Below are positions 1,816 through 32,095 of a stretch of DNA of 64,000 nucleotides, piece after piece; positions within the stretch are counted from its first letter, which is position 1, and each line of letters starts with the position of its first letter. The translations under genes were made by a program, and so were the position numbers. The notes below the pieces were generated by a model. The model made no database searches, was not told the DNA's origin, and saw only the letters and a program-made list of their open reading frames with translations. Source of the DNA: an uncultured Gammaproteobacteria bacterium (lineage in GTDB: Bacteria > Patescibacteriota > Microgenomatia > Daviesbacterales > UBA10151); assembly GCA_964500725.1 (NCBI GenBank), contig CAZCNP010000006.1:3634-67633 (forward strand). Reading direction: 5' to 3'.

Positions 1816-2117
1816 TACAATTAAATATTTTAAATCCGTTAATCTGGAAGGTTGGAACCAGGTAGGAGAGCAAAAGTATGCTACAGAGGCAAAACTGTAA
1901 AAGATCAGCAACATGTGTCGAAGTTTCGGAGCATGTCATGAATAAGGTTAACTTATTCCTTTTTGACATCCCTGGCGACAGGGATTTTTTAATGGCAATA
2001 AGTTAATAAAACAAGGTGGCACCGCCTAATCTTGTAAGCAGAGCTTTCCTTTTGCTTTGCACAACATAGACCCTTGTTAGATTACGAAATATCGTAGTCT
2101 GACAAGGGCTTTTTTTG
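1816..2117 (+). promoter_or_regulatory. T-box-like leader RNA (copy 1): stem III hairpin, T-box sequence, antiterminator and intrinsic terminator
   Basis: ACAAGG-UGGCACC-GCC (2011-2026) resembles T-box consensus AGGGUGGNACCGCG. AACAAGG (2010-2016) can pair CCUUGUU (2072-2078), which overlaps terminator CCCUUGU(2071-77)/ACAAGGG(2102-08)+U7. Stem III at 1970-1983. Confidence 0.5.
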
Positions 2118-2520: not shown

Positions 2521-4359
2521 ATGGAAAACTTGGAGAAAATTGCAAAACTTATCAGGTATTTTATTTTAGTTTCTACCACTGAGGCAGGCTCGGGGCATGT
2601 TACATCATCTTTATCTGCAACAGATCTAATGACTGTTTTGTTATTTGATGGATTTTTTAAATTTGATGTAAAAAACCCTCAAAATCCAAATAACGATAGG
2701 TTAATCTTTTCCAAAGGCCATGCCTCCCCTCTTTTCTATTCTCTCTTTGCTGCAGCTGGAGCAATTACTGAAACAGAACTTAAAACATTAAGAAAATTTG
2801 GCAGTAGGTTAGAAGGACATCCTACTATGCTGTTTCCCTTTACCGAAGCTCCTACTGGCTCTTTAGGTCAAGGTTTATCTATTGGATTAGGCATGGCACT
2901 TTCTGCAAAATATCTAGATAAATTGCCTTTTAAAACTTATGTTTTGTTAGGAGATTCCGAGATGGCAGAAGGCTCTGTCTGGGAAGCAATTCAACTAGCT
3001 GCACATTACCAATTAGATAATTTAATTGGAATTTTGGACGTTAACCGTTTAGGCCAACGAGGGCAAACAATGTATGGTCACAATATTAAAGATTATGAAA
3101 AAAGAATTGCTGCATTCGGGTGGCAGACAATAGCAATCGACGGGCACTCGCTAAAAGAAATCCGAGGAGCTTTTAAAAAAGCTCAAGGTATGAAAGGTGT
3201 TCCAATAATGATTATTGCCAAAACTTTAAAAGGCAAAGGTATTTCGTTTTTAGAAGACAAGGATGACTGGCATGGCAAAGCTTTAAAACCTGAAGAGCTA
3301 GAAAAGGCGCTAGCAGAATTAGGTCCTATTGATAAAAAGCTTACAGGAAAAATAACCATGCCCCCTAAATTTAAAGATCAGAAATTAAAAGCTAAAGTTT
3401 CAACCCAAGATTCAAAAACGAACTACCAACTAGGAGAAAACATTGCTACTAGAAAAGCTTATGGAAATGCCTTAGTTAGAATTTATCCTCAATTTCCTAA
3501 CCTGGTTGTGTTGGATGCAGAAGTCTCGAACTCTACTTTTGCAGATATATTTAAAAAAGCTTACCCGGAGAGATTTTTTGAAATGTATATTGCAGAACAA
3601 AACATGGTCGGCACGGCTTTGGGTCTAGCAAGACAAGATAAGATTCCTTTTGTTTCAACCTTTGCTGCTTTTTTTAGCAGGGCTTTTGATCAGATTCGGA
3701 TGAGTCAATACGCAGATACTAATATTAAGTTTATTGGCTCTCATGCTGGAGTATCAATTGGTGAAGATGGCGCTTCTCAGATGGGTTTGGAAGATATTGC
3801 TATATTTAGAAGCCTATTAAATAGTGTTATTTTATACCCTTCAGATGCTGTTTCCACTGAAAAATTACTTACTGAAGCTGCCAAACACAAAGGAAATGTT
3901 TATATTCGCACTACCAGAAAAGACACTCCAATTTTATATCCAAATAACGAACAATTTCCAATTGGCGGGAGCAAGATTTTAAAAAGTAGTAATAAAGATC
4001 TTGTAACTGTAATTGGAGCAGGCATAACTCTACATGAAGCTTTAGCTGCATATGAACAACTAGCTAAAGAAAATATCTTAATTAGAGTAATTGATCTTTA
4101 CAGCATCAAACCTTTAGATATTAAAACTTTAGTAAAGGCATCACAAGAAACACAAGCAATTATTACCGTTGAGGATCACTTCGAGCAAGGAGGCATAGGT
4201 GAAGCTGTTTCTTCTACTCTTTCTGGTCATAAGACAAAAGTGTATTCCTTGGCAGTTAGAAAAATGCCAAGAAGTGGAAAACCAGCTGAGCTTTTGGAAT
4301 ATGAAGAAATATCTGCAAGTGCAATTATACAAAAAGTAAAAGAAATTATTGCATTTTAA
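2521..4359 (+). CDS. tkt: transketolase
   Basis: 612 aa with GHxxSxxS TPP-binding N-terminal motif (SGHVTSSLSATDLM), GDSEMAEG, and pyrimidine-binding and C-terminal domains. Confidence 0.9.
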   Translation: MENLEKIAKLIRYFILVSTTEAGSGHVTSSLSATDLMTVLLFDGFFKFDVKNPQNPNNDRLIFSKGHASPLFYSLFAAAGAITETELKTLRKFGSRLEGHPTMLFPFTEAPTGSLGQGLSIGLGMALSAKYLDKLPFKTYVLLGDSEMAEGSVWEAIQLAAHYQLDNLIGILDVNRLGQRGQTMYGHNIKDYEKRIAAFGWQTIAIDGHSLKEIRGAFKKAQGMKGVPIMIIAKTLKGKGISFLEDKDDWHGKALKPEELEKALAELGPIDKKLTGKITMPPKFKDQKLKAKVSTQDSKTNYQLGENIATRKAYGNALVRIYPQFPNLVVLDAEVSNSTFADIFKKAYPERFFEMYIAEQNMVGTALGLARQDKIPFVSTFAAFFSRAFDQIRMSQYADTNIKFIGSHAGVSIGEDGASQMGLEDIAIFRSLLNSVILYPSDAVSTEKLLTEAAKHKGNVYIRTTRKDTPILYPNNEQFPIGGSKILKSSNKDLVTVIGAGITLHEALAAYEQLAKENILIRVIDLYSIKPLDIKTLVKASQETQAIITVEDHFEQGGIGEAVSSTLSGHKTKVYSLAVRKMPRSGKPAELLEYEEISASAIIQKVKEIIAF

Positions 4360-4488
4360 TTATTACTGCTGTATAATTTTTTAATTGTTATGAATATATT
4401 AAAACAAAGCAACTATTTTTGGTTTTATTTTACTTCCCCAAGGGAGGCTAGCTAAGGCTATTTAAAAATAAGCCAAGAGCTTGTTAAA

Positions 4489-4512
4489 CCTCCCAATTAG
4501 GGAGGTTTTTTT
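4489..4512 (+). terminator. intrinsic terminator after tkt
   Basis: CCTCCC-AATTA-GGGAGG followed by T7. Confidence 0.6.
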
Positions 4513-4535
4513 GTGAGAAAAAAGAGAAAATAAAT

Positions 4536-5357
4536 ATGTACAAAGTTGAAAGAATAGAAAGAAGCGATATAATAAGGCCAGACGAGTTTGCTGTTGCCGG
4601 TGGCCCATGTGCAATAGAAACAGAAAAACAAGCTTTCGCTGTTGCACAGTCTCTTTACGAGATGGAGATACGGATATACAGAGGACAATTATGGAAACCC
4701 CGATCAAGCAGAGATAGTTTTCAAGGCATAGGGCTTGCAGGAATACCATGGTTGAATAGAATTAAAAGAGATTTCGGTATGGTTATTGCTACAGAGATTG
4801 TAGATAAAGACCAGATAAAACCAACCATTGATGTTGTAGACATACCATGGATTGGATCAAGAAATATGCAGAATTTCGAGTTATTAAAGGCTATAGCTGA
4901 TGATGGAACAAACCGACCTGTAATATTAAAAAGAGGCGCATCTGCAACAATTAAAGAGTGGTTACAATCCGCAGATTATATAGGCAGAGAAAGAGTTATA
5001 CTGTGTGAACGTGGAGTAAGAACTTCTACAGACTCAACAAGATACACTCTAGATTTAAATGGGGCTCTGGTGGCAAAACATGATCACGGAATGCCTGTAA
5101 TAGGCGACCCTTCTCATCCGGCCGGCCGTCGTGATTTAGTTTTACCCCTTGCTCGTGCCATTGTAGCCGCTGGGCTGGATGGAATGGTAGTAGAAATACA
5201 TACCAATCCCGAACAAGCCTTATCTGACAAAGATCAACAAATTACTCCTGAGACTTTTCGTGAAATGTTAAGACAAACACGAGCAATATATAAAGTGTTA
5301 AATCCCCCGGTTTTAAATGGCCATCATACTAGACTTTTATCACCTGCATTAGCATAA
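4536..5357 (+). CDS. 3-deoxy-7-phosphoheptulonate (DAHP) synthase, class I-beta type (KDO8P synthase cannot be fully excluded)
   Basis: 273 aa, KPRSS...FQGIGL and GDPSH motifs of the I-beta DAHPS/KDO8PS fold. Adjacency to pheA favours DAHP synthase. Confidence 0.7.
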   Translation: MYKVERIERSDIIRPDEFAVAGGPCAIETEKQAFAVAQSLYEMEIRIYRGQLWKPRSSRDSFQGIGLAGIPWLNRIKRDFGMVIATEIVDKDQIKPTIDVVDIPWIGSRNMQNFELLKAIADDGTNRPVILKRGASATIKEWLQSADYIGRERVILCERGVRTSTDSTRYTLDLNGALVAKHDHGMPVIGDPSHPAGRRDLVLPLARAIVAAGLDGMVVEIHTNPEQALSDKDQQITPETFREMLRQTRAIYKVLNPPVLNGHHTRLLSPALA

Positions 5358-5362
5358 TTTTT

Positions 5363-5446
5363 ATGAATATCAAACAACAACTTACCAATATACCAAATAA
5401 GGAATTCTTCTTTTTTACTCCGCCAAAGGACGGGGGTCATTCTTAA
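5363..5446 (+). CDS. candidate Phe leader peptide (27 aa): MNIKQQLTNIPNKEFFFFTPPKDGGHS
   Basis: Small ORF directly upstream of pheA with four consecutive Phe codons (TTC TTC TTT TTT, 5405-5416), ending just before the attenuator hairpins. Confidence 0.5.
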   Translation: MNIKQQLTNIPNKEFFFFTPPKDGGHS

Positions 5447-5498
5447 CATTTAAGTTAAGAATATCAAAGAGACACCCCCGCCCAAAGCGGGGTTTTTT
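5429..5498 (+). promoter_or_regulatory. transcription attenuator (antiterminator/terminator) of pheA
   Basis: Terminator CCCCGC(5476-81)-CCAAA-GCGGGG(5487-92)+U6. Alternative pairing CGGGGGU(5431-37) with ACCCCCG(5474-80) sequesters the 5' terminator strand. Confidence 0.5.
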
Positions 5499-5507
5499 AA
5501 TAAAAAT

Positions 5508-6443
5508 ATGATTAATGAAACAGAGTTAAAAATTAATGATCATCCAATAGTAGTAAAACTTGCTCAAGACAGAACAAAACCTAGAGTAGCTTGTTTAGGA
5601 CCAGCAGGTACTTACACAGAAGCAGCCAGATATGAATTATTAAAAGATCATCTGGATAGGATGGATCAAGAATTTCTCCCTGCCAATGCTAAAGTAGTCC
5701 AACAAGTAGAAGCAGGTGATTTTGATATTGGTATTGTTCCTGTTGAGAATGCCATTGAAGGAGACGTTGTTGAAGTCTTAAGAGAACTAAACCATACCAA
5801 AGAAACTACTATATTGGGAGAAACGATTTTAGGCATCGATCATATGCTAATCGGTCAACCAGGATCTAACACAGAAGAAATCCGTTCTCATCCTCAAGCA
5901 TTAGCTCAATGCAGAAGTTTTCTTTTAGAGAATTATCCTCAAGCAAAACAAGAACCATCGCTTAGCACCACAGCTGCTGTTGAGTATGCTTTACAACATC
6001 CAAGCACGACAGCAATTGCTGGCAGAAGAGCAGCTATAGTTTATAACCTGCCTATTTTGGCGGAAAATATTGGGGATGTTAAAGGTAATTCCACCCGCTT
6101 TTTAATATTGGGCAGAGGCGAAACTGAGCCCACAGGTCAAGATAGCACCGCTTTAATCTTCGTTCCGAGAGGAGACCGCCCAGGCATTTTAGCCAGATGC
6201 TTAACTGCCCTTGCTTCTTATGGAATTAATTTAACCAAATTAGACTCCCGCCCTACTGGAGTAATGAGAGAATATGCATTTTGGATTACTTTAGATGGTC
6301 ATATCAAAGATGAAATGGTCAGGCGAGGAATAGATGATTTAAGAGATACCTATTGTTCGTCATTAAGGGTACTTGGTTCTTATAGGAAAGCAGAACTACC
6401 ACAAGGGGCGAAAGACCCCGGAGCTATCAATAATAGTGGATAA
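5508..6443 (+). CDS. pheA: prephenate dehydratase (PDT catalytic domain plus ACT domain)
   Basis: 311 aa with PDT domain, C-terminal ACT domain and the TKLDSRP motif. Confidence 0.85.
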   Translation: MINETELKINDHPIVVKLAQDRTKPRVACLGPAGTYTEAARYELLKDHLDRMDQEFLPANAKVVQQVEAGDFDIGIVPVENAIEGDVVEVLRELNHTKETTILGETILGIDHMLIGQPGSNTEEIRSHPQALAQCRSFLLENYPQAKQEPSLSTTAAVEYALQHPSTTAIAGRRAAIVYNLPILAENIGDVKGNSTRFLILGRGETEPTGQDSTALIFVPRGDRPGILARCLTALASYGINLTKLDSRPTGVMREYAFWITLDGHIKDEMVRRGIDDLRDTYCSSLRVLGSYRKAELPQGAKDPGAINNSG

Positions 6444-6532
6444 CGGTAGATAAGATTTGCTAGATTGACAAATTGACACCTAAGAGTTATTCTATTATGA
6501 GCTAAGCTTAAAAGGCTTTGCTTTTTTCTTTT

Positions 6533-6634
6533 ATGTCAAAAGTTATTGTTGTAGATTTAAAAAAAGTTGAAATTTTAGTCAGCCTCCTTATTATGCTCCT
6601 TATTGGAGCATTTCTGGGAGGTCTTTTTAGATAA
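6533..6634 (+). CDS. candidate leader peptide / small hydrophobic peptide (33 aa): MSKVIVVDLKKVEILVSLLIMLLIGAFLGGLFR
   Basis: ORF covers segments 1 and 2 of the downstream four-segment attenuator. Run of Leu/Ile codons (CTC CTT ATT ATG CTC CTT ATT) at 6584-6604. No SD. Confidence 0.35.
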   Translation: MSKVIVVDLKKVEILVSLLIMLLIGAFLGGLFR

Positions 6635-6684
6635 AGTTTATCTAAAAGAAAGGAAATTAAGGCCTCCCAAATGGGAGGTTTTTT
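6582..6684 (+). promoter_or_regulatory. four-segment attenuator (two mutually exclusive hairpin sets) ahead of a three-gene hypothetical operon
   Basis: S1 CCTCC(6583-87):S2 GGAGG(6617-21)+UCUUUUU; S3 CCTCCC(6663-68):S4 GGGAGG(6673-78)+U6. S2 GGGAGG(6616-21) can instead pair S3 CCTCCC. Possible promoter TTGACA at 6473-6478. Confidence 0.45.
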
Positions 6685-6698
6685 ATTGGGAAAAGAAT

Positions 6699-7136
6699 AT
6701 GTCAACCATAGAACAAAGGAAACTATATTTAGGAAATACTGATAAACCTGATCCAACAGTATCTGCCCTTTTTGATAAAAGGGATCAATCTCGTGCGTCT
6801 ATACATCGAGAGCAAATAGCAACTAATCAATATGATCTAGCAGAAGAACGAAGACTTGCCAGAATAAAACGCAAGAGTAGAAAATCACATATTCGTCCCT
6901 CTTCGCCTATAAAAGAAGTTCAAACACCTACTATTGTTGAACCAATCGAAGACAGAATTGCTAGAATTGGTGCACTTAATGATTTGAGTTATGCGCTGGC
7001 TATGTTAAAAGCTGGAAGAAAATCAGGAGAGTTAAGCAGAAGAGAATTTACTGACTTACATCAAATTATTGCAGGTGATTACAGACAAAAACAAAGAGAA
7101 CATATGGAGCATATGTCTAAGAAAGGAGGAAATTAA
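6699..7136 (+). CDS. hypothetical protein (146 aa)
   Basis: ATG at 6699 (MSTIEQRKLYLG) after the attenuator. Track ORF from TTG 6603 runs through the terminator hairpins and is probably an over-extension. Confidence 0.5.
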   Translation: MSTIEQRKLYLGNTDKPDPTVSALFDKRDQSRASIHREQIATNQYDLAEERRLARIKRKSRKSHIRPSSPIKEVQTPTIVEPIEDRIARIGALNDLSYALAMLKAGRKSGELSRREFTDLHQIIAGDYRQKQREHMEHMSKKGGN

Positions 7137-7137
7137 A

Positions 7138-7440
7138 ATGACTTTAGAGTCAAAAAAAGGCACCACTTCACCTATCAATGGAGTAGATCCATCAAGCGTA
7201 TTTGATTATACTTTGCGAATTTATATTCCTATAGAAGAATATGAAGATCGCCTAGAAGAAGCACGCCAAGCTAGAGAGGCTACTGAAATAGCCTTAGCTC
7301 AAGAAATAGTTTCAAGACCATCTGCAAAACATACTACCACACAGGGAAGACGAAATGGTTACCATCGAAAAAATGGGGCAGAATCAACCCGTTTACAACA
7401 GCGGGGATCAATAAAAGGTTTTCAAACACCTAAACTATAA
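7138..7440 (+). CDS. hypothetical protein (100 aa)
   Basis: GGAGGA RBS then ATG 7138 (MTLESKKGTT); 2 nt after the stop of the previous gene. Confidence 0.5.
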   Translation: MTLESKKGTTSPINGVDPSSVFDYTLRIYIPIEEYEDRLEEARQAREATEIALAQEIVSRPSAKHTTTQGRRNGYHRKNGAESTRLQQRGSIKGFQTPKL

Positions 7441-7476
7441 CTTGATTAAAAGAATTTCTGAAAGGAGGTAAGTTTA

Positions 7477-7734
7477 ATGGTTGAAGCCATAAATGGAAAA
7501 AATCACCAACCTAATATGGAAAGAGTAAGCGAGGGGTTATTTGATGTAATTAGCGGCGGGGTAAGAGTTGCCCTAGAGTTAGGCCTTCTAACAACGGAAG
7601 GGCCTTACAGACCACAAGAAATGACTACAGCATTAGTTAGAAGAATGAGTGGCCAGAATATTGATGGTTTAGAAAGACAACTTCTAGATATTCAAAGAGT
7701 AATGTCTGTTCTTAGGCAAGTTTTAGATCCTTAA
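7477..7734 (+). CDS. hypothetical protein (85 aa)
   Basis: AGGAGGT RBS then ATG 7477. Third gene of the small operon. Confidence 0.5.
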   Translation: MVEAINGKNHQPNMERVSEGLFDVISGGVRVALELGLLTTEGPYRPQEMTTALVRRMSGQNIDGLERQLLDIQRVMSVLRQVLDP

Positions 7735-9289
7735 CCTTTAGTTGTAAGGTATTATTACCATTGTAGGTATCGAATTCTAAATTAAAAGCTAGGTCTACTG
7801 GTTGGCCAGATTTTAGTGTGGTAATTAAATCTCCCATACTAAAAGCAATAAAATTTATATCATCTGCTTTACCTTTTAGGTGTTTTCCATTTCCTACGGT
7901 CCTCGAATCTGCTATATGCATATTCTTGATTACAAAAACAGGTCTTTTATTGCCAAAGCCGAAGGGCTCAAGTTTAGCTAAATCAGAAACTAATTTTTTT
8001 GTAAGACTTTTGCTATCAACCTCAGCATCAATTTCTAAAACTCTCTCCTCTACTGGTAAATCAATTACAACCTTTTCCAACCTTTGTTTAAATACCTCTA
8101 TATGCTCTCTTAAAATAGAAAACCCTGCTGCTCCAGGATGACCTCCCACATCTATTAAAATATCAGAATGAGTCCTAATCATTTCAACAATATTTACTCC
8201 ATCAACCGAACGGGCAGAACCTTTACAGACTTCTTTTCCAAGAGAAATAGCAATTGCTGGACGGGAATATTCTTCGCAAACCTTTCCTGCAATCAAACCA
8301 ATTATTCCTGATGACCATTCTTTACTGGCTAAGACGTGAATCTTCTTTTCAGTATCAATAAATGTTTTTGCTTGCTCATAAGCTTCTGTTGTCATTTTTT
8401 GGCGGGTAGTATTAGTCTCACTTAGAAGCTGCGCCAATCTCTTTGCTTTGAATGGGTCTTTTGTGCAAAGCAGTCTTAAGGAATCTATCGCATGCTCCAA
8501 CCTCCCCATGGCATTTAACCTAGGTCCTATTATGTAACCTATTTCAAAAGAACCTATATCTCCAACTTTTACTCCTGCCTGATTAAGAAGCGCCAACAAT
8601 CCCAAATTAGCAGTTTTATTTAAAACCTTTAAACCCTCATATACAAATGCCCTACCTAAACCTACCAAAGGAATTAAATCGCAAACTGTAGCAATTGCCA
8701 CAAACTGCAAAAACTCCTCTTGCAGATCTTTTTTAATTAAATCCTTTATCAAACACCAAGCAACTCCAGCACCACACATTTTAGTTGAATGAACTATTGT
8801 AAAAGCTTCAGGCTTTTCTTTTTCTGGAATATGATGATCAGTGATGATTAAATCAATTTGCAAACTCTTGGCATATTTTGCGCTCTCAAAAGCCACAATG
8901 CCATTATCTACAGTAATTAAAACTGTGGCTCCATTATTTTTGGCAAAATCTATACCTATATTTGATAGCCCATACCCTTCTTTTTCTCTATGAGGAATAT
9001 ACGGCAGTACTTTTGCCCCAATTGATGTTATTCCTTTATACAAGATTGCAGAAGCACAAATTCCATCAGCATCATAATCTCCAAAAATTACAATAAGCTC
9101 TTCTTTTTGTATTGCCTTTAATATTCTTTTATGCGCTTGTTCAAGATTAGGAATCTGTAATTCCTCAGTATAATCCGAAATCCTTGGATAGAAAAATCTT
9201 TCCTGATCCTTCTTTGTTATTATTCCACGATTAATTAATAGCTGTTTTATTAAATCATCATTTTTCTTCGGTACTACTTTCCATTTCAT
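7712..9289 (-). CDS. recJ: single-stranded-DNA-specific exonuclease RecJ (DHH/DHHA1)
   Basis: DHH motifs (VIFGDYDADG, ITDHH) and DHHA1 GGHPGAAGFS. Confidence 0.85.
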   Translation of the reverse strand: MKWKVVPKKNDDLIKQLLINRGIITKKDQERFFYPRISDYTEELQIPNLEQAHKRILKAIQKEELIVIFGDYDADGICASAILYKGITSIGAKVLPYIPHREKEGYGLSNIGIDFAKNNGATVLITVDNGIVAFESAKYAKSLQIDLIITDHHIPEKEKPEAFTIVHSTKMCGAGVAWCLIKDLIKKDLQEEFLQFVAIATVCDLIPLVGLGRAFVYEGLKVLNKTANLGLLALLNQAGVKVGDIGSFEIGYIIGPRLNAMGRLEHAIDSLRLLCTKDPFKAKRLAQLLSETNTTRQKMTTEAYEQAKTFIDTEKKIHVLASKEWSSGIIGLIAGKVCEEYSRPAIAISLGKEVCKGSARSVDGVNIVEMIRTHSDILIDVGGHPGAAGFSILREHIEVFKQRLEKVVIDLPVEERVLEIDAEVDSKSLTKKLVSDLAKLEPFGFGNKRPVFVIKNMHIADSRTVGNGKHLKGKADDINFIAFSMGDLITTLKSGQPVDLAFNLEFDTYNGNNTLQLKVKDLKLA

Positions 9290-26849: not shown

Positions 26850-27113
26850 AAAAAAGCCCTTGTAAATCCCTAAGATATTCTTAGAAACTTACAAGGGCCT
26901 TCAAAAGGCGGTGCCACCTTGCTTTAAGTTTTTACATAAAAAATCCTCCAATTACGGAGGAGTACTGTAGAAACTTAATCTTACAGCGCTCCGTTGCCGA
27001 CACGCTTATTGTATTTATACAGTTCAATTTCTGTCACAGTATTTCTTTGCCGACTGACCTGTGCAGCTTGTCTATTGCGATAGACTCAAACGCTTTTAAA
27101 ATATTTAATTGTT
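26850..27113 (-). promoter_or_regulatory. T-box-like leader RNA (copy 2) with canonical antiterminator (A1 / UGGNACC bulge / A2) overlapping an intrinsic terminator
   Basis: Minus strand CAAGG-UGGCACC-GCC-UUUUGAA-GGC-CCUUGU (26921-26891), then terminator GCCCUUGUAA...UUACAAGGGC+U6 (26898-26850). Stem III CCUCCGUAAUUGGAGG at 26959-26944. Confidence 0.55.
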
Positions 27114-27144
27114 GATAATAGTATAACAGGAGAAAGTTAGAGTG

Positions 27145-30839: not shown

Positions 30840-31952
30840 TTAGACTATCTTTTCCCAGGGGAATTCATCACGGCCAAAGTGCCCGTAGCTGGCTGTTGGA
30901 AGATATATTGGCCTTTGCAAATCTAGGCCTTTTAAGATTCCTGAAACTGATGTATCTAAGATTTTCTGCATGAAAGATAAAATCACTTTGTGAGATTTTT
31001 TATTAGTTCCAAAAGTTTCAACATCCTGCATGGTAGGGCTTTTTGCTCCAATAAAATAAGCAAGTCTTACCTCTGCCCTGTCTGCCAGTTTTGCAGCAAC
31101 TATGTTTTTTGCCAAAAACCTGGCTGCATATGCTCCAGACCTGTCTACTTTTGTTGGATCTTTTCCAGAAAAAGCCCCTCCACCAACCCTAGCGTATCCT
31201 CCATACCCATCAACAACTATTTTTCTACCAGTTAGGCCACAATCAGAAGCAGGACCACCATTATGCCAAACCCCTGTCCCATTAACTATTAATTGATCCT
31301 TTTTAATTTTAAATCCATAAACATCTAAAACAGGAATTACTACGGACTCATATATATCATCTTTAACTTGACTTAATTTAACAGATTCCTCGTGCGGGAT
31401 AGCAATTACTACTTGAGTTACTTTATAAGGCTTTCCATCTCTATACTCAATTGTAACTTGGGATTTCCCATCAGGTCTTAAATATTTAATTATTTTCTCT
31501 TCTCTGGCCTGATCCATTCTTTTTGTTAAAGAATGAGCCATAGCAATAGGGAGGGGCATCAAGCTAGCTGTTTCTGTGCAGGCATATCCAAACATCATTC
31601 CTTGATCTCCAGCTCCTTTTTTATCTACACCAACTCCAATTTCAGGTGATTGCTCGTGAAGATGAACTTCCAGGGGAGATTTATCAGAAAAATTATAGTT
31701 AGAATCTGTATAACCTAATCTCCTAATTTGTTGTCTTGCTACCTCGGCAAAGTCTACTTTAGCATTAGCAGTAATTTCTCCGGAAATGATTACCCTATTA
31801 AAACCAGCCAGCACCTCACAAGCAACATGGCCAAACCTATCCTGAGTTAAAACTGCATCTACAATTGCATCAGAGATTGCATCGCAGATTTTATCTGGAT
31901 GACCAGAGCAAACTGATTCTGATGTAAAAGTTGTAATACCGTTACTTTTCAT
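30840..31952 (-). CDS. metK: S-adenosylmethionine synthetase
   Basis: ATG 31952 (MKSNGITTFTSESVCSGHPDKICD). Track start 32015 lies inside the riboswitch/terminator. Confidence 0.9.
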   Translation of the reverse strand: MKSNGITTFTSESVCSGHPDKICDAISDAIVDAVLTQDRFGHVACEVLAGFNRVIISGEITANAKVDFAEVARQQIRRLGYTDSNYNFSDKSPLEVHLHEQSPEIGVGVDKKGAGDQGMMFGYACTETASLMPLPIAMAHSLTKRMDQAREEKIIKYLRPDGKSQVTIEYRDGKPYKVTQVVIAIPHEESVKLSQVKDDIYESVVIPVLDVYGFKIKKDQLIVNGTGVWHNGGPASDCGLTGRKIVVDGYGGYARVGGGAFSGKDPTKVDRSGAYAARFLAKNIVAAKLADRAEVRLAYFIGAKSPTMQDVETFGTNKKSHKVILSFMQKILDTSVSGILKGLDLQRPIYLPTASYGHFGRDEFPWEKIV

Positions 31953-32095
31953 AAAAAAACCTCTCAAACTATATGAGAGGTTTAAAGTTTTCCTGTACCA
32001 GACGGTACGGGACACATCTTCCTCTCAGGAATCTGGCACCTTAGGCTTTAAGGTTGCCGGCGTCCGGTAAAACCGGAGCACTCTTGATGTATTTT
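31953..32095 (-). promoter_or_regulatory. SAM-I (S-box) riboswitch with terminator, upstream of metK
   Basis: Minus strand AUCAAGAGUGCUCCGG...CCGGCAACC...AAGGUGCCAGAUUCCUGAGAGGAAGAUG. Terminator CCUCUCA...UGAGAGG+U7 at 31980-31953. Confidence 0.8.

Follow-up and report, generated by a model that had tools for sequence, protein, structure and literature searches.

A predicted leucine-sensing leader-peptide attenuator upstream of three genes of unknown function in a CPR bacterium

Described attenuators and their relation to the Daviesbacteria element

Leader-peptide attenuation, in which a ribosome stalling on particular codons of a short leader ORF decides whether transcription stops or reads on, has been studied mainly in Proteobacteria. 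In the enterobacterial pheL-pheA attenuator (Rfam RF01859, Phe_leader) a leader ORF is combined with alternative 1:2 and 2:3 helices and a 3:4 terminator, and in the ilvGMEDA (ilvL) and leu (leuL) operons of E. coli leaders of about 30 codons are dominated by Leu/Ile/Val codons. The ilvL peptide has 32 residues, about half of them Ile, Leu, or Val, so that a hydrophobic, transmembrane-like appearance is normal for such leaders. Classical attenuators upstream of amino-acid genes have also been predicted by comparative genomics in Actinobacteria and other phyla (PMC1262725; survey cited in PMC4833913); however, we found no paper describing such attenuators in candidate-phyla-radiation (CPR) bacteria/Patescibacteria.

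We analyzed a 64,000-nt stretch of DNA from a Candidatus Daviesbacteria MAG (contig CAZCNP010000006.1 of assembly GCA_964500725.1), henceforth referred to as the window, in which the region 6465–6698 had been predicted from sequence alone to contain a four-segment attenuator with a Leu/Ile-rich leader ORF. The element has the same four-segment logic as Phe_leader and nearly the same terminator words, the consensus terminator of the model being aGCCuCCcaAccgGGaGGCuUUUUU, which aligns to GGCCUCCCAAAUGGGAGGUUUUUU in the window. However, the element scores only 26.1 bits against Phe_leader (6571–6688; gathering score 55), a score that comes mostly from the terminator, and it differs from Phe_leader in having a Leu-rich leader of 33 codons, an extra inner hairpin and the hairpin H2, in lacking a Shine-Dalgarno (SD) sequence, and in preceding orphan genes. 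No Rfam family matches the region at the gathering score, and at E values up to 10 no leader family other than Phe_leader appears; matches to isrK, gltS, ncr1575, and others are at chance level. In contrast to the ilv and leu operons, the downstream genes are not branched-chain amino-acid biosynthesis genes, and leader mRNAs of the type described here are near-leaderless or carry a 5' hairpin instead of an SD sequence. Compared with the attenuators predicted in Actinobacteria and other phyla, the family considered here appears to be modular, with a shared 3' cassette and exchangeable leaders, and a large share of its members appear to regulate small, fast-evolving proteins of unknown function. 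In translation-attenuation leaders of the ermC/cat type a sequestered SD sequence is freed, and S4 (GGGAGG) of the present element is likewise an SD-like word sequestered by S3. In 40 of 111 family members an AUG that opens the downstream gene directly follows the U-tract at SD distance, and in these the terminator hairpin could also mask the ribosome-binding site. However, this fraction of 36% is about what chance in-frame placement would give, and in the window the gene starts 15 nt after the U-tract with only a weak GGGA upstream. Because a U-tract terminator is present throughout, we regard transcription termination as the primary reading.

Anatomy of the leader and the downstream genes

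All sequence features of the original prediction are present, and all parts described here are on the forward (+) strand. The window contains two overlapping TTGACA hexamers. The original prediction placed the possible promoter at 6473–6478, but the hexamer that is conserved in homologs is that at 6465–6470, which is followed by a 17-nt spacer and the -10 sequence TATTCT (6488–6493), giving a sigma-70-type promoter (6465–6493) that scores 10 of 12 in a consensus scan. The block ATTGACAA aligns between the window and the loci L009, L090, and L092 (L numbers denote loci used for comparison), and in 26 of 26 homologous leaders with enough upstream sequence we found a perfect TTGACA, a 17-nt spacer, and a -10-like hexamer that is TAnnnT in 23 of the 26. 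A second promoter-like site, TTGAAA-16-TATTAT at 6567–6594, is not conserved in homologs. The promoter is followed by a stem-loop (6499–6523) at or near the 5' end of the leader transcript, which is present in the MFE and centroid folds, and by a U-rich linker (6524–6532) up to the leader AUG without an SD sequence. Ten of 26 homologs have a comparable hairpin plus A/U-rich linker between the -10 and the ATG, at 30–68 nt, whereas the other 16 have only 6–15 nt, so that their leader mRNA is near-leaderless. We rejected the pheA terminator as the sole explanation of this hairpin and its U-run because similar hairpins lie downstream of the -10 in nine other leaders; it may nevertheless insulate against read-through from pheA or stabilize the 5' end.

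The leader ORF (ATG 6533 to TAA 6632–6634) consists of 33 codons plus the stop codon, encodes MSKVIVVDLKKVEILVSLLIMLLIGAFLGGLFR, and is not called in the NCBI annotation. The four words are S1, GCCUCCU (6582–6588); S2, GGGAGGU (6616–6622) followed by CUUUUU; S3, CCUCCC (6663–6668); and S4, GGGAGG (6673–6678) followed by U6 (6679–6684). Folding with RNAfold gave an energy of -46 kcal/mol with z = -4.3 against shuffled sequences, and the arrangement GGGAGG..CCTCCC..GGGAGG occurs twice in the window against 0.00 expected in 100 shuffles. The fold contains three hairpins. H1 (6582–6622; -24.2 kcal/mol) is two-tiered, with the outer helix S1:S2 enclosing an inner hairpin (6593–6599 with 6605–6611), and is the anti-antiterminator and a probable pause hairpin. 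H2 (6624–6648) is an 11-bp A/U-rich hairpin whose 5' arm contains the leader stop codon. The intrinsic terminator T2 (6659–6684; -14.8 kcal/mol) has the S3:S4 stem, extended to 10 bp, with the loop AAAU and the U6 tract. The inner hairpin of H1, H2, and the 5' hairpin had not been noted in the original prediction. The predicted complementarity of S2 and S3 is real and longer than reported, comprising 8 bp (6616–6623 with 6661–6668) including one G.U, and encloses H2.

The first of the three downstream genes (6699–7136) encodes a protein of 145 aa, and its ATG lies 15 nt after the U-tract, leaving no room for its own promoter. NCBI calls a 177-aa product from TTG 6603 running through the terminator, which is probably a mis-set start. 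The 145-aa protein is a near-orphan: a word-indexed search found only the protein itself, a full HMMER search over 1.84 billion representatives found one relative at 35% identity, there are no Pfam, PHROGs, or NCBIfam hits, and a single-sequence AlphaFold model had low confidence (pLDDT 68, pTM 0.32). The second gene (7138–7440) encodes 100 aa, has a strong SD sequence (AGGAGG 7124–7129), and its product shows weak similarity to small proteins that follow the same type of leader in L009 and L011. The third gene (7477–7734) encodes 85 aa, its end overlaps the end of the convergent recJ (7712–9289, minus strand), and its product shows weak similarity to the 93-aa protein that follows an Ile-type leader in L094. 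The three proteins and their counterparts after other Leu-type leaders have no family assignment, and ten larger proteins encoded after Leu-type leaders gave only one Pfam hit, GCS2.

Conservation of the unit and sister elements

To determine whether the unit is conserved, we searched for homologous leaders; a scan for close relatives with pheA alone found nothing usable, and an alignment-based scan was needed. Daviesbacteria relatives whose pheA is 70–74% identical keep the promoter, ORF, H1, H2, and T2 downstream of pheA, while the gene after the element differs. Interestingly, the locus of the single relative of the 145-aa protein, L221, carries an almost identical leader, MSKVISIDLKRVENLVSLLLVLLIGAFLGGLFR, directly upstream. 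The leader is therefore far more constrained than the gene it precedes, and the linkage between them is conserved. The unit also occurs away from pheA, for example in L008 (22–174) and twice in L099.

The whole unit is conserved in 27 homologs, with covariation in all helices including the antiterminator. S1:S2 is 93% paired, H2 is 93% paired with changes on both sides at four pairs, and S3:S4 is 99.5% paired. All 27 sequences fold into the same two-tier H1 although the inner stems differ in sequence, for example GUGCUCC/GGAGCGC, CCUAC/GUAGG, and AGUGG/CCACU. The antiterminator S2:S3 is 92.6% paired with compensatory changes at three pairs, namely G-C to A-U in three sequences, U-A to C-G in six, at a position of S2 that has no counterpart in S4, and A-U to G-C in one. 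No shuffle of 500 reaches the observed values, and slid controls give 43–60% paired. In a variant, L180, S2, S3, and S4 have changed together to GGGGG/CCCCGC/GCGGGG. When S1 is masked (fold of 6612–6690), the antiterminator becomes the MFE structure in the window, at -23.7 kcal/mol against -21.8 kcal/mol for H2 plus terminator. However, the two states are nearly isoenergetic, and with S4 present and S1 masked the antiterminator is the MFE in only 10 of 27 homologs, whereas the terminator remains the MFE in 17. The switch must therefore rely on co-transcriptional kinetics, and the argument rests on covariation and on the order of synthesis.

The ATG and an open frame are conserved in all 27 homologs. 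The stop codon lies 11, 15, or 18 nt after the first base of S2, although two reading frames are used across S2 (...GGLFR* or ...GRSF*) on the conserved nucleotides GGGAGGTCTTTTTAGATAA; this placement is as expected if a terminating ribosome masks S2. Codons 14–24 (ILVSLLIMLLI: five Leu, three Ile, and one Val; 6572–6604) form the predicted stall zone, in which a ribosome would cover S1 and leave S2 free, assuming a footprint of about 15 nt upstream and 12 nt downstream of the A site. Three-base periodicity is present in this zone only: entropy by codon position is 1.08/0.58/1.22 bits, indicating that the second-position U (hydrophobic NUN codons) is selected, whereas N-terminal codons show almost no codon-position signal (1.16/1.05/1.25 bits). 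The homologous leaders carry 5–13 Leu, but some Leu codons (CUC CUU) follow from the words CCUCCUU and GCUCCUU, and part of the Leu richness may be a by-product of structure.

Elements of the same design carry leaders that match the downstream amino-acid genes. Two lie in the window (4390–4513 and 5363–5498), where MNILKQSNYFWFYFTSPREAS precedes DAHP synthase (4390–4513) and MNIKQQLTNIPNKEFFFFTPPKDGGHS precedes pheA. The aromatic-leader element at 4397–4514 scores 51.1 bits against Phe_leader, also below the gathering score, and sisters in L088 and L008 score 44 bits. Elsewhere, Ile leaders precede HMGL-like citramalate/isopropylmalate synthases, Thr leaders precede an amino-acid kinase (aspartokinase-like) and a class II aaRS (ThrRS-like), a Cys leader precedes a cysteine-metabolism fusion (PALP plus Cys/Met-PLP), and aromatic leaders precede DAHP synthase and an aminotransferase.

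Proposed mechanism and its implications

On the basis of these data, we consider it likely that the element is a ribosome-mediated transcription attenuator that senses how fast a Leu-rich, partly Ile/Val-rich, leader ORF is translated and gates expression of the three orphan genes at 6699–7734, provided that the leader is translated, as its AUG lacks an SD sequence and lies 39 nt after the -10 behind a hairpin. In this model, transcription starts at about 6499, and H1 followed by its U-run forms behind the polymerase and probably pauses it until a ribosome translating the leader melts H1. If Leu-tRNA (and Ile/Val-tRNA) is plentiful, the ribosome runs to the stop codon, where it covers S2 and the 5' arm of H2, so that S3 pairs with S4 and transcription ends at the U6 tract. 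If no ribosome loads, S1:S2, H2, and S3:S4 all form and transcription also terminates. If the ribosome stalls on codons 14–24, it holds S1 but leaves S2 free to pair with S3, stacked on H2, before S4 is made; the terminator cannot form, and the polymerase reads into the 145-, 100-, and 85-aa genes. That limitation of Leu (or Leu/Ile/Val) is the signal, and that the three genes benefit from being induced under that condition, is inferred. The downstream genes have no recognizable link to Leu/Ile/Val metabolism, a link that is usual for such attenuators but not mechanistically required.

The same switch could instead report general translation stress, for example ribosome-targeting antibiotics as in ermC/cat-type leaders, a nascent-chain-dependent arrest, or simply ribosome availability. 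In line with this, the downstream genes are not amino-acid genes, the N-terminal motif MSK..(I/L)D(L/F)(K/R) recurs within the Leu-type subfamily, and the SD-less leader, near-leaderless in most homologs, could be sensitive to initiation capacity. We consider this unlikely because the cognate leaders of the sister elements argue for amino-acid sensing as the mode of the family, the N-terminal codons show almost no codon-position signal, and the only strongly selected codon feature is the second-position U in the stall zone. The alternative given in the original prediction, a small membrane peptide followed by a protein-dependent terminator, and the related possibility of an independent gene for such a peptide with downstream genes expressed by other means, are also disfavored. 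Although the element has a canonical promoter, a strong terminator, selected hydrophobic codons, and a hydrophobic stretch of about 19 residues that could span a membrane, the C-terminus is read in two frames on conserved nucleotides, the N-terminal half evolves almost neutrally at the peptide level, and S2:S3 covaries, which a stand-alone gene does not need. Moreover, the next gene starts 1–25 nt after the U-tract in most copies, identical architecture serves non-hydrophobic leaders of 16–25 residues before biosynthetic genes, and no Pfam or NCBIfam family matches the peptide.

A small hydrophobic peptide encoded on a highly structured mRNA built from SD/anti-SD-like words is also reminiscent of a type I toxin-antitoxin module. 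This is very unlikely given the unconserved frame of the C-terminus, the invariable presence of genes in the same direction abutting the terminator, and the occurrence of several copies per locus with non-hydrophobic sister leaders; no conserved antisense promoter or RNA was seen, although without a systematic search for a conserved minus-strand promoter, and the minus-strand hairpin at 6678–6663 is simply the reverse of T2. Finally, the element lies directly downstream of pheA, and CCTCC/GGAGG words are common in this genome (110 occurrences against 88 expected), but a mere pheA terminator region or a chance arrangement of such words is effectively refuted by the comparative data, as the full arrangement is not expected by chance and the unit has its own conserved promoter and occurs away from pheA.

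More tentatively, and with somewhat less than even likelihood, Daviesbacteria and related CPR bacteria carry a large, modular toolkit of leader-peptide attenuators in which a common 3' part (S2, H2, and an S3:S4 terminator) is combined with leaders specific for at least Phe/Tyr/Trp, Ile, Leu, Thr, and Cys, and possibly Met, His, and Ser, often translated from near-leaderless mRNAs. In this reading, the Leu-type branch defines a starvation-induced regulon of small, rapidly evolving, Leu-poor proteins of unknown function, which could be a nutrient-stress or host-interaction program in organisms thought to depend on other cells for amino acids.

The family offers compact, sequence-defined amino-acid sensors, and it corrects an annotation in that the 177-aa gene call should be read as a 33-aa leader plus a 145-aa gene. 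The Leu-type switches point directly at a set of unannotated small proteins whose expression is predicted to respond to leucine starvation, giving a testable handle on the function of CPR orphan genes. A large, diversified family of such switches in CPR bacteria would show that these reduced, uncultured organisms couple transcription and translation, that they monitor individual amino acids, and that they use this information beyond biosynthesis.

Anatomy and genomic context of the element

The window comes from a Candidatus Daviesbacteria MAG (GCA_016198315.1, contig JACQIW010000012.1), in which genes for transketolase (2521-4359), DAHP synthase (4536-5357), and prephenate dehydratase pheA (5508-6443) are followed by a 255-nt spacer, three small genes (6699-7136, 145 aa; 7138-7440, 100 aa; and 7477-7734, 85 aa), and a convergent recJ. 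All sequence features listed in the original prediction, which had read the spacer as a leader ORF with four pairing segments in the geometry of ribosome-stalling attenuation, are present. We found that the MFE and centroid folds of 6570-6692 (-46 kcal/mol, z = -4.3) contain a two-tier hairpin, H1, in which segment S1 (6582-6588) pairs with segment S2 (6616-6622) around an inner hairpin (6593-6611), an 11-bp hairpin, H2 (6624-6648), whose 5' arm holds the leader stop codon, and a terminator, T2, formed by segments S3 and S4 (6659-6682) with U6 at 6679-6684. S2 is complementary to S3 over 8 bp (6616-6623 with 6661-6668). The word arrangement GGGAGG..CCTCCC..GGGAGG occurs twice in the window, against 0.00 expected, and the other occurrence (4442-4505) turned out to be a sister element.

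The NCBI annotation of this MAG calls a 177-aa product from TTG 6603 (6603-7136) that runs through S2, H2, and the terminator, and it misses the 33-aa leader. A 145-aa product from ATG 6699, which was also chosen by another gene caller, fits the comparative data.

To determine whether the element is conserved, we examined relatives whose pheA is 70-74% identical. Loci L009, L090, and L092 from these relatives carry the same unit downstream of pheA, comprising ATTGACAA, a 17-nt spacer, a -10, an ORF (MSKVISVDLKRVENLVVLLAVLLTGVLLGRFF or MSKSLSLNLKRIEVLLGLLLVLLTGALLGRSF), H1, H2, and the terminator; however, the following gene is different in these relatives and encodes a 74-80-aa orphan. Another relative, represented by locus L008, lacks the unit downstream of pheA but has a copy about 3 kb upstream.

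Sister elements and their downstream genes

A profile of the unit found further copies and, more informatively, shorter sister elements with the same 3' architecture but different leaders. Most hits carry a short ORF that ends just after S2 and contains a run of one kind of residue. We then searched representative downstream genes against Pfam and found that the leader NYFWFAYFTP (locus L105) precedes a DAHP synthase, YYWHY (L198) a class I/II aminotransferase, EEIIIGIIT (L146) an HMGL-like synthase, NTTTTTT (L179) a class II aaRS with an HGTP anticodon domain, KKTTKTT (L126) an amino-acid kinase, and VCCITPE (L157) a PALP plus Cys/Met-PLP fusion. In L008, MLISIKEIIEIIITSQKGGLAR precedes a 530-aa protein that, judged by eye and without a Pfam scan, resembles citramalate/isopropylmalate synthases. 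Among the metagenome contigs (loci L101-L220), the same architecture carries leaders with runs of Thr (TTTTTT), Cys (CCC, VCC), Ile (IIIEIII), and aromatic residues (YFWF, YYWHY), a second Leu type (CLLLSKRL), and possibly Met (MMM), His (HHH), and Ser (SESSS). Many Ile-type and second-Leu-type leaders also precede small proteins of unknown function.

Notably, the window itself holds two sister elements. The first (4390-4513), upstream of DAHP synthase, has the leader MNILKQSNYFWFYFTSPREAS (4390-4455), the S1:S2 words CUUCCC/GGGAGG, and a terminator at 4487-4512, and it scores 51.1 bits against Rfam Phe_leader, just below the gathering score of 55. The second (5363-5498), upstream of pheA, has the leader MNIKQQLTNIPNKEFFFFTPPKDGGHS (5363-5446) and the terminator CCCCGCCCAAAGCGGGG plus U6 (5476-5498), which uses CCCCGC/GCGGGG words instead of CCUCCC/GGGAGG. 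In another Daviesbacteria genome (L010:3930-4040, the same as L096), an aromatic leader (MDNNHKTSYWFFAFV) downstream of pheA overlaps the pheA stop codon and is followed by S2/S3/S4 words that all changed together, to GCGGAGG/CCUCCGC/GCGGAGG, in front of a 202-aa protein of unknown function. The pairing of leader bias with downstream pathway in the sister elements is the strongest argument that the architecture works as an amino-acid-responsive attenuator in this lineage.

Most family members also have a conserved spacer, UUUUUUU-AUGGAAAAAAUAUG, following the terminator (e.g., L099:1859-1870 and L008:175-190). In 40 of 111 copies the first AUG opens the downstream gene, which puts S4 (GGGAGG) at Shine-Dalgarno distance, whereas in the others the gene starts 11-25 nt further on; the window has AUU in place of the first AUG.

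The window contains further leader-like regions that score below the Rfam gathering scores. A T-box-like leader (1830-2054, plus strand), which contains AAGGUGGCACCGCC and is accompanied by a terminator at 2063-2117, lies upstream of a 111-aa ORF and transketolase but scores only 19.3 bits against a gathering score of 93. A second T-box-like region (26890-27117, minus strand; 24.6 bits, gathering score 93) has a UCCUCC/GGAGGA hairpin plus U-tract at 26961-26944. A SAM-I/IV-like riboswitch (31975-32095, minus strand; 34 bits, gathering score 41.1) with a terminator at 31981-31959 lies upstream of the 391-aa ORF at 30840-32015, and its expression platform also repeats the terminator's 3' arm upstream (GAGAGG...CCUCUCA...UGAGAGG).

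Conservation of the Leu-type leaders

We next aligned 27 distinct leaders of the same Leu-rich type as the element studied here. All 26 with enough upstream sequence have a perfect TTGACA, a 17-nt spacer, and a -10-like hexamer, which fits TAnnnT in 23 of the 26. In 16 of them the ATG lies 6-15 nt after the -10, so that the leader mRNA is near-leaderless, whereas in 10, including the window (39 nt), a hairpin plus an A/U-rich linker is inserted there. Initiation on this leader, which lacks an SD, is inferred.

Across the alignment S1:S2 is 93% paired, H2 93%, and S3:S4 99.5%. The antiterminator S2:S3 is 92.6% paired, with compensatory changes at three pairs (G-C to A-U in 3 sequences, U-A to C-G in 6, and A-U to G-C in 1); covariation is seen in all helices, including the antiterminator. 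No shuffle of 500 reaches these values, and slid controls give 43-60%. Interestingly, the U-A to C-G change involves the base after GGGAGG in S2, which has no equivalent in S4, so this covariation is specific to S2:S3. One copy (L180) changed S2, S3, and S4 together, to GGGGG/CCCCGC/GCGGGG. All 27 sequences fold into the two-tier H1 although the inner stems differ widely in sequence; pausing of the polymerase at H1 and its U-run is inferred. In the window, the full leader prefers H1 + H2 + T2 at -46.0 kcal/mol, whereas with S1 masked the MFE is S2:S3 at -23.7, against -21.8 for H2 + T2. At equilibrium this preference holds in only 10 of 27 homologs, so the order of synthesis (S3 before S4) must matter.

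Because the ORF could encode either a regulatory leader or a membrane peptide, we examined how it is conserved. The stop codon lies 11, 15, or 18 nt after the start of S2 in all 27 sequences; however, the frame across S2 differs, with 17 sequences ending in ...GGLF(R/K) followed by the stop, 9 in ...G(R)SF, and 1 in ...GGLFRF, all on the conserved nucleotides GGGAGGTCTTTTTAGATAA. What is conserved is, therefore, RNA sequence and stop position, not the peptide. Entropy by codon position is nearly flat for codons 2-13 (1.16/1.05/1.25 bits), whereas in codons 14-24 it is 1.08/0.58/1.22, so second-position U (Leu/Ile/Val/Met/Phe codons) is selected exactly where a stalled ribosome would cover S1 and leave S2 free. 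That periodicity shows translation-level selection but on its own does not separate a regulatory leader from a membrane peptide. The frame change, the S2:S3 covariation, the abutting downstream genes, and the non-hydrophobic sister leaders do separate them.

Regulated genes and comparison with known attenuators

The 145-aa protein is a near-orphan whose only relative (35% identity) sits at locus L221 behind an almost identical leader and the same post-terminator spacer. Genes after Leu-type leaders are clusters of two to four small proteins without family assignment, with one exception, a GCS2-like protein, and some of these proteins are weakly related between loci. As a set (51 proteins, 7152 residues), they are depleted in Leu (6.95% against 10.44%), Ile (6.45% against 8.62%), and Val (6.17% against 7.32%), and enriched in Arg and Pro, compared with long ORFs of the window. 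This would suit proteins made during Leu/Ile/Val shortage, but it may simply reflect their hydrophilic nature; that Leu (plus Ile/Val) is the signal is inferred, as is the physiological purpose of the switch.

The main interpretation in the original prediction, that of a ribosome-stalling attenuator, is supported, and in its proposed mechanism the element works like the classical trp/phe/leu/ilv attenuators. It is not a member of any Rfam family at threshold, although the aromatic sisters come close to Phe_leader at 44-51 bits. Comparative surveys of such attenuators exist for Proteobacteria, Actinobacteria, and other phyla (PMC1262725, PMC4833913), but in the literature searched we found no paper linking leader-peptide attenuation to CPR, Patescibacteria, or Daviesbacteria. 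Although the mechanism itself is already known, the element differs from described attenuators in three respects: the lineage in which it is found, the modular family to which it belongs, and the unknown, fast-evolving targets of the Leu-type branch.
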